From the NCBI RefSeq assembly GCF_053078305.1, contig NZ_CP166879.1: 64,000 nucleotides of DNA; one strand, 5' to 3'. The position numbers are program-made. This document shows positions 33,001 to 36,000 of this stretch, in pieces; the first letter of the stretch is position 1, and each line of letters opens with the position of its first letter.

Positions 33001-36000
33001 ACAGAAAAACAACTGCCGTCCGGCATTGAATCTGAGGTGAAATACACCCTGCAGTTCTGGCTGCTGAGTAACGGAAAGGTCATGACGGAAAAAGACGGGC
33101 TCTGTAACCCCTTTCCCCCGAACTGTATTGAATCGGCTCATCCTTTTACTCCGTTTCAGCAGAATCAGTGGATTGAACTGGACACTGTCGGGTCGGATGG
33201 ACCGGTGAAAGCGACGTTTCTTGTGCACAGCGTTCTGTATAAACTGAAACGTCAGGGTGGCTCCCTGAATGATGGCAACTGGCCTGAATACGGCCGGTGC
33301 ATTGCTCACTGGCACACTGACGTGTTTGTTGAGAAAAAAGCGCTGCCTGACTGGCTGAGAGCATTCCACACTGACGTTTCGCACTCGTAAAAACACGTTC
33401 AGCCCGACGGGTCATATTTTCCAGCCACCCGTCGGGGAAAATGTCAGCACCATCACGGGGAAACAAAATCGCTTTCCATTCAGGGTATGAGCGCGGAATA
33501 CCTCCGGAAGCATTCCGGCTCAGACAGCGACTCACAGTGCAGGCAGCACGGAATGCATATGTTGCGATGCTCTCATCATATGTTGCGATGTTCTCATTAT
33601 TGCCTTTCTGCCGTTCCACCCGCTCTTCAGCATCAAATGCCAGTGCAGCAAGGCTTGCCCAGCACATGCAGTTCACTGAATTCCCCGGAACGCTCTGCAG
33701 CTCCCGGCGCACCATGTTGACCTCAGCACTGAAAAAAGCGTTCTCATCGCCTTCAAGGGCAGCCAGATGCAGCGGAAGCCAGACCTGACTGAACCATTCG
33801 CACATCCGTTCCCGGTTACTGACGGTCATCACTGTCTCCGGGCGGGAACCGTCCTGAAAAACATGTCCGGTGCGTGGAGAACTGTATGAAACATAACCAC
33901 CGTGCACCGCAATGACCGGACGACCTGACGCCGGAAGCCCCACACGACACCCACTGGCAATCCGGGTCATCAGCAGGTTCAGTTCAGCCAGTAATTCAGG
34001 GCGGGTTAAGACCGCCGGAAGCGGAGAATATTTCACTGAGGAAGACATACTTTCACCTCCATATCTCTCAGCCCGCCAGGTGCGTCACTTCCCCGCAGAT
34101 ATACCGCCCCCTCCGTCTTTCGCTGTTTGCAGGAAAGACCACATGAAAAAAGCTGGTCATGCCGCTGACGACGCTGGCGTTCCTGCAAAAGAAAGGAGTC
34201 ACAACCGGAACACAGCCCCAGACCACTCTCAGGATTCACCTTCACCCAGACCGGAGCATTCTTACCGGCACCATCCCGTACCCCGGAATAACCACAGCCC
34301 ACGCACACCGTCCACTTCTGCAGTACGATGAGTGCAGTTTCGAGTGATGCGCGGAGACGCCGGGAGGCAATAAGGAGCAACGGCTCATGGTCATAAAAAA
34401 CCCCGCCGTTACCCCCTCCGGATTCAAGCAGCGGGAGTCCTGCAGGCTCCCGGGGAGCTGTTGACATTTCCCGTAATTCGTTTTCATTCCACATATTGTG
34501 GAAAGTTATCCGGTTCACTGAACAACGCCATTCCTCCGCCAGACGCTGATACAAATGCTTTTTCGCTTCTGCGCGGTCAGATGCATCAACAAACACATGC
34601 ACTTCCTCGTGTCCGGGTGCTGAAGCCACGGCACGCCATATCAGTTTTCTGCCCACAGGCTTTTCCCTCCGTTTTCCAGCAGAGCATCAAAAAACTCACG
34701 CCACTCCGGCAACAGTTCACAGGCCAGACTGTGCATGGTGACCAGCGCAGAATCGCTGCAACGGGCAGACACTTTTTCCAGACGATGCACCGGCTGACCG
34801 GCTGCGTGCCCCTGTTTATAAATATTCAGGTCGTAAATCTGTGTTGAAAGAAGGGTGACCGCACCTTCAGGCAGCACTTTGCTGTAGCGACCGGCGTTGA
34901 TAATGCCTGTCAGCTCTGCCAGTGTCTGTCTGGCCAGCGCCGTATAATCCATGCAGTTAACCAGGGTGCGGACTTTCGGCAGGGGAATACCCAGTTCACG
35001 GTAGGGCATAAGGTTTTCCATGACATTGACCGTGCCGCGGATGAACTCACGCACATCCGGCAGAACCGGATTCACCATCCCCACCACAGACTCCGTGGCG
35101 GACAGCACAATCATTTCCAGCATGACAGAACGTGCGCCCTGTGAATCCACCACAATGACGTCATAGGTCTGAAAAAGCGGATGCTGAAGCACATTACGCA
35201 GACGAAGGCGACCATCCGGCGCATGAAGCATGGCCGTTTTCAGTTGCTCATGGGGGTCGTTGGAGACGATGAGGTCAAGCCCCCTGACAGCCGTACGGGA
35301 AATGATGTTGTCAGGATGACTGAGGTCAGCCGTGCGCATCAGTAATTCAAAAAGACCGGCCGGCGCTTCATACGTCAGCGGAAAGATATTGCTTGCCGTG
35401 GGCTGTGCATGGTCTCCGTCTATCAGCAGAGTACGGAGGCCGGCATCTGCCAGAAAACCGGCAAGATTAGCAGACTGGGTTGATTTTCCTTCGCCACCTT
35501 TAGTGGATATAACCGGTAAAATTTTCATATAGCACACTCTTTAAAGTATGCAACCAATCACTTACACTACGGAAACCAGCCAGAATATTCACTTCACTAC
35601 CTGAATACTCGCAACACGGGGATCTAAAATCCCCGTGTCCTTGGTTCGATTCCGAGTCCGGGCACCAAATTCATATCAACGGACCTCCACGGAGGTCCGT
35701 TTTTCGTTTCAGAACGCCACAATTTAAGCGTTCTGCCTCCAAATCAATTCTACCGAACTCAACCAGATTCCCCCCACATCAACCCCATTGTGTGGGTATA
35801 ATTGCGGGTATACCCCAGTTCGACAGAATTTGTACCCTCTTTAACGCATTCAGAAGGCTGAACTATGGCACTGACTGACGCAAAAATCCGGGCTGCAAAG
35901 CCCACTGACAAGACTTATAAACTCACTGACGGGGCCGGCATGTTCCTGCTGGTTCATCCTAATGGTTCCCGTTACTGGCGTCTCCGTTATCGTATTCTGG

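Follow-up and report, generated by a model that had tools for sequence, protein, structure and literature searches.

A 3′ fragment of tRNA-Phe at the probable seam of two elements integrated in tandem

The end of a tRNA-Phe gene, without its 5′ half, lies between a ParA gene and a P4-type integrase gene in a 64,000-nucleotide stretch of contig NZ_CP166879.1 (assembly GCF_053078305.1), which is referred to here as the window. The locus raises the question of whether the fragment joins two elements that were inserted at the same tRNA gene, is the recombination joint of a single element, or is what remains of a decayed gene. A preliminary description of this DNA favored two elements integrated in tandem at one tRNA-Phe attachment (att) site, or an attR of an integrative conjugative element (ICE) that was later re-used by a second integrase. 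The analysis presented here supports tandem integration. The fragment is most probably (with a probability of about 0.88) a displaced 3′ piece of tRNA-Phe, from pheV or pheU, where the two members of a tandem array meet, with the ICE on its left and a GI-pheV-type island on its right. The stacking of elements at tRNA genes and both of the element types have already been described, and the locus points to no new mechanism.

The tRNA-Phe fragment and its flanks

The tRNA-derived segment GGGGATCTAAAATCCCCGTGTCCTTGGTTCGATTCCGAGTCCGGGCACCA occupies positions 35618–35667 of the plus strand of the window, and 48 of its 50 bases are identical to positions 27–76 of the canonical E. coli tRNA-Phe(GAA). 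The segment includes the CCA end and is a 3′ part of the tRNA, which is the form that the Islander approach expects of displaced tDNA. No copy of the 26 nucleotides from the 5′ part of tRNA-Phe was found in the 64-kb window with up to six mismatches allowed, in agreement with the preliminary description, which had reported that only about 50 nucleotides of the 3′ end are present. ARAGORN identified no tRNA genes in the window, and the fragment scores 17.6 bits against the Rfam tRNA model, which is below the gathering threshold of 29. The segment does not form the complete cloverleaf of a functional tRNA and is not a gene. The fragment had previously been placed at 35618–35710; however, only the part up to 35667 is derived from tRNA, and positions 35668–35710 contain a terminator composed of a hairpin and a T-run. 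The features of the junction are as follows (coordinates in the window, strand, identity):

1–35617, minus strand: right-hand ~35.6 kb of an ICE of the SPI-7/PFGI-1 type (PAPI-1/pKLC102, ICEEc2/ICEEc8-like), based on NCBIfam markers and relatives
34641–35528, minus strand: gene of a ParA/Soj-type ATPase, the last gene of the ICE, annotated by PGAP as 'ParA family protein' in relatives
35529–35617, no strand: arm contributed by the ICE (P arm of its attR); homology with genomes lacking the ICE stops at 35617
35618–35667, plus strand: tRNA-Phe 3′ fragment (positions 27–76), identified by sequence match; probably displaced, serving as attR for the ICE and as attL for the P4-integrase island
35618–35639, plus strand: 22-nucleotide interval (anticodon stem-loop and variable loop, tRNA positions 27–48) that, according to the T-stem comparison, holds the ICE crossover
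35624–35625, plus strand: private double substitution of CT for TG at tRNA positions 33–34, from comparison with related junctions
35645–35667, plus strand: 23-nucleotide T-loop/acceptor core, the GI-pheV direct repeat used by the P4-type integrase, matching the distal remnant and the published attR
35678–35701, plus strand: intrinsic terminator (10-bp hairpin and T-run) from the P4-integrase island, also located 3′ of the tRNA in ICE-free genomes
35865–37127, plus strand: P4-type tyrosine integrase gene (intP4), first in the GI-pheV-type island, identified from Pfam domains
35668–55605, plus strand: main part of the P4-integrase island; island DNA or additional cargo runs on to the window end

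A 38-mer and a 23-mer from the 3′ end of the fragment occur once each in the window, and neither occurs in 100 dinucleotide-preserving shuffles of it. Contig JPQG01000001.1 (GCA_000736735.1) and the window do not differ over 21,263 bp, a stretch that includes the CT substitution; therefore, the fragment is not an artefact of the way the window was cut. The same truncated 50 nucleotides are present at eight junctions of the same ICE lineage in complete E. coli genomes. An intact tRNA-Phe at this position, which the preliminary description had named as evidence against its interpretation, is thus absent both from contig JPQG01000001.1 and from the eight related junctions.

Nine NCBIfam models match window open reading frames above their curated cut-offs and assign the DNA to the left of the fragment to the SPI-7/PFGI-1 family, in line with the mention of SPI-7-type ICEs in the preliminary description. 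The markers are dnaB_SPI-7_type, ICE_PFGI_1_parB, STY4528_fam, ICE_PFL4669, STY4534_fam, PilL2, TraD TIGR03754, TIGR03752, and TIGR03759. Relatives with 98–99% identity are annotated as ICEs. In the copy of the ICE in the window, an IS66 element separates traD from the TIGR03747 gene. The opposite end of the ICE, with TraI, the XerC-like integrase, and an intact tRNA-Phe, is situated outside the window and is known from relatives; contig JPQG01000001.1 extends 43.8 kb beyond the left end of the window and probably stops within the ICE. The product of the gene closest to the fragment has NCBIfam matches of the ParA/MinD class, and the identical gene in contig JPQG01000001.1 matches the Pfam families CbiA and AAA_31. 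The preliminary description stated that the ParA gene ends 90 bp upstream of the fragment; the distance is correct (89 nucleotides), but it is the start codon of this minus-strand gene that faces the fragment. The intervening arm at 35529–35617 is identical in the eight junctions of the same lineage and different in other ICE lineages.

The integrase to the right of the fragment is a 420-residue-long protein with the Pfam architecture Arm-DNA-bind_3, Phage_int_M, and Phage_integrase; its score of 248.7 bits against NCBIfam PRK09692 is below the cut-off of 434. The start codon ATG is at position 35865, 197 nucleotides past the CCA, where a P4-type integrase had been announced 200 bp downstream. 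Such an integrase gene directly 3′ of tRNA-Phe sequence is the arrangement expected of GI-pheV. The cargo of the island includes a 1171-residue-long helicase/PLD protein, a phosphoethanolamine transferase, the SPATE autotransporter EspI, an AraC regulator, Iha, and BtuB, and resembles that of LPA. Known island sequence stops at ~55.6 kb; next come a remnant of cob and a pdu operon with only ~80% identity to that of E. coli itself. The distal 19–23-bp tRNA repeat of the island is absent from the window, the right end of which is still island or cargo DNA. The sequence of the terminator is also located 3′ of intact pheV or pheU at eight other loci.

The order of a minus-strand ParA gene, a tRNA 3′ part, and a plus-strand integrase gene is formally that of attP in this family of ICEs. 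If the integrase at 35865 belonged to the ICE, the junction would represent its circular form or a head-to-tail dimer. However, the ICE in relatives has its own 345-residue-long XerC-like tyrosine recombinase, positioned beside TraI at the opposite end and always abutting tRNA-Phe, whereas the 420-residue-long integrase and the genes downstream of it are present in thousands of genomes without any ICE. Furthermore, the fragment has a canonical T-stem, whereas a true attP would carry the variant of the ICE, and the DNA to the right contains LPA-type island cargo and no ICE backbone. Given the separate ICE integrase at the intact tRNA and the presence of intP4 in ICE-free genomes, the interpretation of the junction as attP, and of the 35865 gene as the ICE integrase, was rejected, and its probability is negligible.

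The breakpoint and the copies of tRNA-Phe

The homology of the window to ICE-free genomes breaks exactly between positions 35617 and 35618, as determined by base-by-base comparison, in which it collapses at 35617. For more than 3,400 genomes of E. coli, the homology starts at query position 79, which corresponds to window position 35618, and an intact tRNA-Phe is located directly 5′ of the same integrase. Three ICE-free loci, two at pheV and one at pheU, have no mismatches to the window from position 35626 on for more than 5.5 kb, and ICE-free genomes encode the identical intP4 protein next to an intact pheV or pheU. Because the identical head of the island occurs at both genes, the locus is, as judged from the sequence, either pheV or pheU. 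Two independent ICE lineages have different arms, but share the breakpoint to within one nucleotide.

The position of the breakpoint bears on a possible origin of the fragment as a decayed tRNA pseudogene, the 5′ half of which was lost through an unrelated deletion or IS event. The missing 5′ half, the two mutated bases of the anticodon loop, and the abundance of IS elements in both the ICE and the island are consistent with such decay. However, the breakpoint falls where a direct repeat begins, the second copy of which is in the intact tRNA at the opposite end of the ICE, it recurs within one nucleotide in independent ICE lineages, and the length of the fragment agrees with the ~50–52-bp repeats reported for this type of ICE (PMC6455142). 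Moreover, no end of an IS element abuts the fragment. The decay of a pseudogene is therefore a highly improbable origin of the fragment.

The tandem array can be seen in full in the syntenic complete genome NZ_CM143728.1, in which three direct copies of tRNA-Phe delimit the ICE and the island. The first copy is an intact pheV beside yqgA, which abuts the genes of the 345-residue-long recombinase and the TraI relaxase of the ICE, with UvrD nearby. The second copy, ~84 kb from the intact pheV, is the 50-nucleotide fragment between ParA and intP4. The third copy, at the far end of the island beside yghD, is a remnant of about 22 nucleotides, TTCGATTCCGAGTCCGG-CACCA (positions 26281–26303 of locus L008), which is identical to the commonest published attR of GI-pheV (PMC11537424). 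An intact tRNA-Phe beside the same ICE integrase was found at ten further loci. Thus, the att copies that the preliminary description proposed to look for at the element boundaries exist in this relative. Both outer copies are located outside the 64-kb window; searches with up to 3–12 mismatches found no second or third copy inside the window. The same outer copies are presumably present in the source genome. The two members of the array have separate integrases, intP4 at 35865–37127 and, in relatives, the XerC-like recombinase of 345 residues at the opposite end of the ICE, as is characteristic of tandem arrays.

The tRNAs located beside the ICE integrase are chimeric. In all 11 cases, in pheV and pheU alike, they are canonical through position 48 and then have the variant T-stem G49G50...C64C65. 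By contrast, all nine tRNAs compared that are positioned beside intP4 are canonical, as is the T-stem of the fragment. The ICE-borne copy differs from the fragment at four T-stem positions, so that the repeat in the relative is identical in 46 of 50 bases. Since the ICE supplies the 3′ part of the tRNA with a compensated variant of the T-stem, its crossover is placed within tRNA positions 27–48. Some of the relatives carry annotations of 'tRNA-Ser' or 'tRNA-OTHER' at the junction, which could indicate another target gene; however, these are chimeras of the ICE arm and the 50 nucleotides from the 3′ end of tRNA-Phe, and ARAGORN rejects them. Two junctions between P4-type islands retain only ~19–23 nucleotides of the tRNA, which indicates that the upstream integrase determines how long the remnant is.

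Order of insertion and comparison with known elements

It is probable that the GI-pheV-type island was inserted first, beside the tRNA, by its P4-type integrase recombining in the last ~23 nucleotides (T-loop/acceptor). The SPI-7/PFGI-1-type ICE would have followed by means of its own XerC-like recombinase, crossing over further 5′, at positions 27–48. The 5′ part of the chromosomal tRNA and the 3′ part carried by the ICE would together have regenerated a functional tRNA-Phe, with the T-stem of the ICE, at the integrase end of the element. The original 50 nucleotides of the 3′ end, the terminator, and the resident island would have been displaced by ~80–85 kb and come to lie at the end of the ICE that carries ParA. 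Thus, the fragment would be the attR of the ICE and the attL of the resident island at once, and both integrases may continue to act on their sites.

The reversed order, in which the ICE entered an empty tRNA-Phe first and the P4-type island was later inserted into the displaced 50-nucleotide fragment, corresponds to the re-use of attR that had been considered from the outset, and it would leave the same final sequence as that observed. The fragment retains the canonical 23-nucleotide core of the P4-type integrase, whereas the tRNA regenerated beside the ICE has two mismatches in the core (TTCGATTCCGCCTCC...); therefore, an incoming P4-type element would match the fragment better. However, ICE-free genomes contain the head of the island, 100% identical for more than 5.5 kb, next to an intact pheV or pheU of canonical sequence. 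Among 5,426 complete genomes, more than 3,400 have intP4 beside an intact tRNA-Phe, compared with 27 that have the ParA junction. In addition, several distinct ICE lineages are located next to this island. Because of this prevalence without the ICE, and because of the several ICE lineages at one island, the repeated entry of ICEs into an occupied site is the simplest account. The population evidence thus favors the insertion of the island before that of the ICE, and the reversed order is unlikely.

Both members of the array resemble elements that have been characterized. ICEEc8 is 86.5 kb long and is inserted in pheV with a 52-bp direct repeat (PMC6455142), and pheV and pheU have been described as hotspots of ICEEc2 (PMC11537424). 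The ICE described here shares with them, as judged partly from its relatives, the tRNA-Phe target, a repeat of ~50–52 nucleotides from the 3′ end of the tRNA, the location of the integrase and relaxase at one end and of ParA at the other, and a background of LEE-negative STEC hosts (PMC6455142, PMC11537424, PMC6761156); the length of 86.5 kb compares with ~84 kb in the relative. However, a perfect 52-bp repeat has been reported for ICEEc8, whereas that in the relative of the ICE described here is identical in 46 of 50 positions. The island has in common with GI-pheV the integrase directly 3′ of tRNA-Phe, the imperfect distal repeat of about 23 bp beside yghD in the relative, flu/yee modules at the far end, and the cargo espI, iha, and btuB (PMC11537424, PMC6455142). 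It differs from GI-pheV in that its attL consists only of the 50 nucleotides from the 3′ end of the tRNA, because the ICE is interposed.

The principle of displaced fragments, tandem arrays, and the classes of sites at the anticodon and the T-stem have been described previously (PMC4383910). As in the tandem arrays of Islander, each member of the present array carries an integrase of its own and, in NZ_CM143728.1, its own direct tDNA fragment, and the gene is regenerated at one end (PMC4383910). There is no essential difference from these arrays; the members described here use an anticodon-centered and a T-stem/acceptor sublocation of the tRNA, which accounts for the fragment lengths of 50 and 22 nucleotides. 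The replication and partition backbone of the ICE (the SPI-7-type DnaB, STY4528, and STY4534 families) is shared with SPI-7 of Salmonella Typhi, whereas the cargo is different and the ICE contains no Vi locus. SPI-7 of Salmonella Typhi also targets tRNA-Phe (pheU).

A private substitution and the mobility of the two elements

The preliminary description noted that bases of the anticodon loop are altered, and positions 35624–35625 are indeed CT instead of the TG of tRNA-Phe. The CT was found only in the window and in contig JPQG01000001.1; TG is present in all eight junctions of the same lineage, in two other ICE lineages, and in all the intact tRNAs compared. The 22-mer containing CT has no exact match among 100,044 representative genomes. 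The notion that CT is a common form of attP was rejected on account of these zero matches and of the TG at eight out of eight junctions of the same lineage. As judged from these comparisons, the alteration is private to one strain and is no part of the att signature.

The substitution falls inside the 22-nucleotide interval required for the crossover of the ICE; therefore, the repeats of the ICE in this strain may have lost their proficiency for recombination. By analogy with att sites centered on the anticodon, the CT could be positioned within the 7-nucleotide overlap itself. It is conceivable, although doubtful, that it is a heteroduplex scar from integration or a heterology that blocks excision. 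If the heterology did block excision, the ICE would be fixed in the strain, and the neighboring island would be fixed behind an attL without a tRNA.

In E. coli of a Shiga-toxin-type background, the fragment provides a base-exact boundary between an ICE and a virulence island with espI, iha, and btuB. It is also of use for annotation, as the same junction has been mis-called as tRNA-Ser or tRNA-OTHER in some RefSeq genomes. The locus provides an example of two integrase families that act on different sub-sites of one tRNA. The junction helps to predict which pieces excise independently: because the repeats of the ICE exclude the neighboring island, the ICE is predicted to excise alone.

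An ICE and a P4-type integrase island on either side of a tRNA-Phe fragment

The junction between the two elements contains the following features:

34641–35528, minus strand: ParA gene, its start codon towards the fragment, with 89 nucleotides between them
35618–35667, plus strand: tRNA-Phe 3' fragment, sequence GGGGATCTAAAATCCCCGTGTCCTTGGTTCGATTCCGAGTCCGGGCACCA
35678–35701: terminator composed of a hairpin and a T-run, within 35668–35710, the rest of the range ascribed to the fragment in the preliminary description
35865: ATG of the integrase gene intP4, 197 nucleotides past the CCA

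Of the 50 bases of the fragment, 48 agree with positions 27–76 of the canonical E. coli tRNA-Phe(GAA); the two exceptions, at 35624–35625 (tRNA positions 33–34), read CT where the tRNA has TG. The 3' 38-mer and 23-mer of the fragment occur once each in the window (0/100 shuffles). The 26 nucleotides of the tRNA 5' end were not found in the window with up to six mismatches allowed, ARAGORN called no tRNA across the entire window, and the Rfam tRNA model gave the fragment 17.6 bits, under the gathering threshold of 29. The preliminary description of a 3' piece of about 50 nucleotides without its 5' half, flanked by ParA and integrase genes, is accurate. Its distance of 90 bp to the ParA gene holds, but that gene is on the minus strand and does not end towards the fragment.

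As judged from its genes, the left-hand element is an ICE of the SPI-7/PAPI-1/pKLC102 class, in agreement with the SPI-7-type ICE proposed previously. Its open reading frames score above NCBIfam curated cut-offs for SPI-7-type DnaB, PFGI-1-class ParB, the STY4528, PFL_4669, and STY4534 families, PilL2, TraD (TIGR03754), TIGR03752, and TIGR03759. Relatives in complete E. coli genomes, with 98–99% identity, are likewise annotated as ICEs. A STAXI RNA (Rfam RF01728, 76 bits) is located at 20508–20673 on the minus strand, between the STY4534-family gene and topoisomerase III. An IS66-type element with open reading frames of 141, 116, and 537 residues (8235–10651, plus strand) separates traD from the TIGR03747 gene. 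Some relatives carry this insertion and others, such as NZ_CM143728.1, do not; it may have a polar effect on the conjugation operon.

The gene at 35865 has the P4-type integrase architecture of Arm-DNA-bind_3, Phage_int_M, and Phage_integrase domains. It is followed by genes for a 1171-residue helicase/PLD protein, a phosphoethanolamine transferase, EspI, an AraC regulator, Iha, and BtuB, which are LPA-like cargo of a GI-pheV-type island. The 1171-residue protein (37579–41094, plus strand) combines SF1 helicase (AAA_11/AAA_12) and phospholipase-D nuclease domains. Its weak NCBIfam matches are to anti-phage helicase-like proteins (PLuB, ProA), and it is possibly a defence gene.

Homology to the E. 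coli LPA-type island ends at about 55,605, and the segment 55606–64000 contains a remnant of a cob operon and pocR-pduF-pduABC. Two cobalamin riboswitches are spaced 2 kb apart in this part of the window:

55288–55481, minus strand: cobalamin riboswitch, 45.5 bits, preceding btuB of the island
55799–56233: CbiG_N open reading frame, remnant of a cob operon
57531–57705, minus strand: strong cobalamin riboswitch, 108 bits, preceding the truncated cob remnant

The cob/pdu stretch is about 80% identical to the pdu locus of E. coli itself and 82–83% identical to those of Salmonella and Klebsiella. A closer match was not found among 5,426 complete E. coli genomes; the arrangement is common to several draft genomes.

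Organization of the tandem array

The window contains one copy of tRNA-Phe sequence; an intact tRNA and a distal remnant are seen in relatives. The syntenic complete genome NZ_CM143728.1, the record of which runs in reverse relative to the window, begins at its outer end with yqgA, intact pheV (3810739–3810814), and the 345-residue XerC-like tyrosine recombinase that belongs to the ICE. TraI, UvrD, the remaining ICE, ParA, the 50-nucleotide fragment, and intP4 with the remaining island follow, and the far end is formed by the 22-nucleotide remnant TTCGATTCCGAGTCCGG-CACCA (3631281–3631303) and yghD. The three tRNA-Phe copies are in direct orientation and delimit an ICE of about 84 kb and an island of about 95 kb. 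Further att copies, anticipated in the preliminary description, are thus present at both outer boundaries in this relative, and its interpretation of tandem elements meeting at the fragment is supported. The remnant at yghD is identical, letter by letter, to the commonest GI-pheV attR (PMC11537424). For the 86.5-kb ICEEc8, located in pheV of LEE-negative STEC, a 52-bp repeat from the tRNA 3' end has been described on its two sides (PMC6455142). On sequence grounds, the fragment is a classic piece of displaced tDNA, situated where an ICEEc2/ICEEc8-like ICE meets a GI-pheV (intP4) island. Both elements and the tandem phenomenon are known from earlier work.

A DUF465-dolP-YadA-like adhesin module occurs twice in NZ_CM143728.1: one copy is within the P4-integrase island (3717497–3720384; extracted locus L005), the other close to the end of the ICE that has the integrase (3802110–3806242; extracted loci L002/L004). 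Homologous recombination between the ICE and the island could take place at such a repeat. The repeat may also be why draft contig JPQG01000001.1 (L014; GCA_000736735.1) stops 43.8 kb to the left of the window, probably within the ICE. This contig matches the window without a difference over 21,263 bp and is almost certainly its source.

When a 761-nucleotide query over the junction is aligned with complete E. coli genomes, more than 3,400 of them match it from query position 79 (window position 35618); in these, the same integrase comes immediately after an intact tRNA-Phe. Random decay or deletion of the tRNA is excluded by the break-point, which is seen repeatedly and matches the repeat in position. 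An exact-protein look-up found the integrase in four contexts: ParA-fragment-int (L014), yqgA-pheV-int, dsbD/yjdC-pheU-int, and behind the end of another P4-type island. Over more than 5.5 kb from 35626 onwards, the ICE-free loci L019 and L020 (pheV) and L018 (pheU) match the window without a mismatch. The sole differences are at 35624–35625, and similarity is wholly lost at 35617. These three loci are naturally occurring vacant sites for the ICE. Because the island head is identical at each tRNA gene, both pheV and pheU fit the window locus.

Order of insertion

Insertion of the ICE into a site already occupied by the island and insertion of the island into the fragment left by the ICE end in the same sequence; therefore, structure alone cannot decide between them. 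Later arrival of the island accounts for the observed junction equally; however, it is less favoured by three lines of population evidence. More than 3,400 genomes have intP4 beside an intact tRNA, compared with 27 that have the ParA junction; the island head is also found, 100% identical, where no ICE is present; and several ICE lineages adjoin the same island. Integration of the island before the ICE is thus favoured.

Predicted crossover sites of the two integrases

All 11 tRNA-Phe genes adjoining the ICE integrase, in pheV and pheU, are canonical to position 48 and continue with G49G50...C64C65, a doubly compensated T-stem, whereas the tRNAs adjoining intP4 are wholly canonical (9/9). In the functional host tRNA, which is chimeric (L004 5739–5814 from NZ_CM143728.1; L024–L033), G49-C65 and G50-C64 replace canonical C49-G65 and U50-A64, and ARAGORN retains the tRNA-Phe(GAA) call. 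Therefore, the ICE rewrites part of the host tRNA wherever it is integrated: the 3' part of the regenerated tRNA comes from the ICE, and the resident 3' part stays in the fragment. The ICE crossover, as predicted from this exchange, must lie within tRNA positions 27–48 (window 35618–35639). An attP-like joint, or the 35865 gene as the integrase of the ICE, is excluded: the ICE has a separate integrase, the T-stem of the fragment is canonical and not the ICE variant, and what lies to the right is cargo that does not belong to the ICE.

The altered anticodon-loop bases reported previously are real, but they are outside the att signature. The CT occurs only in the window and the L014 contig, the eight same-lineage junctions in complete genomes all have TG and are otherwise identical over 141 nucleotides, and an exact match to the 22-mer with the CT was found in none of 100,044 representative genomes. 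The simplest explanation for the CT is that this non-functional remnant acquired a private mutation, or that the assembly is wrong here. Given its position inside the crossover interval, the CT might, speculatively, impair ICE excision; single mismatches in island repeats can cut deletion frequency by orders of magnitude (PMC11537424).

In two other ICE lineages (L006, NZ_CP032265.1; L007, NZ_CP028756.1), the arms are unrelated and the break-point is the same within one nucleotide. RefSeq/PGAP labels these chimeras of ICE arm and tRNA-Phe fragment 'tRNA-Ser' or 'tRNA-OTHER' (L006 3897–3974; L007 3925–4003), whereas ARAGORN finds no tRNA at either. The false calls are probably caused by the degenerate acceptor 5' strand that the arms keep (GCCCGTA, GTCCGGA).

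Tandems of two P4-type islands occur in L022 and L023 (DAQBVO010000043.1, DAZFVL010000148.1), where the integrase of the window follows the CbtA/DUF4942/ParDE end of a second P4-type island; only the 23-nucleotide remnant TTTCATTCCGAGTCCGGGCACCA, about 200 nucleotides upstream of int, separates them. With a P4-type island as the upstream member, just 19–23 nucleotides or so are left at the junction. Therefore, the length of the leftover tells which integrase family inserted upstream. The pattern agrees with the Islander catalogue (PMC4383910), which includes tandem arrays and att sites of the anticodon-centred and T-stem/acceptor classes.
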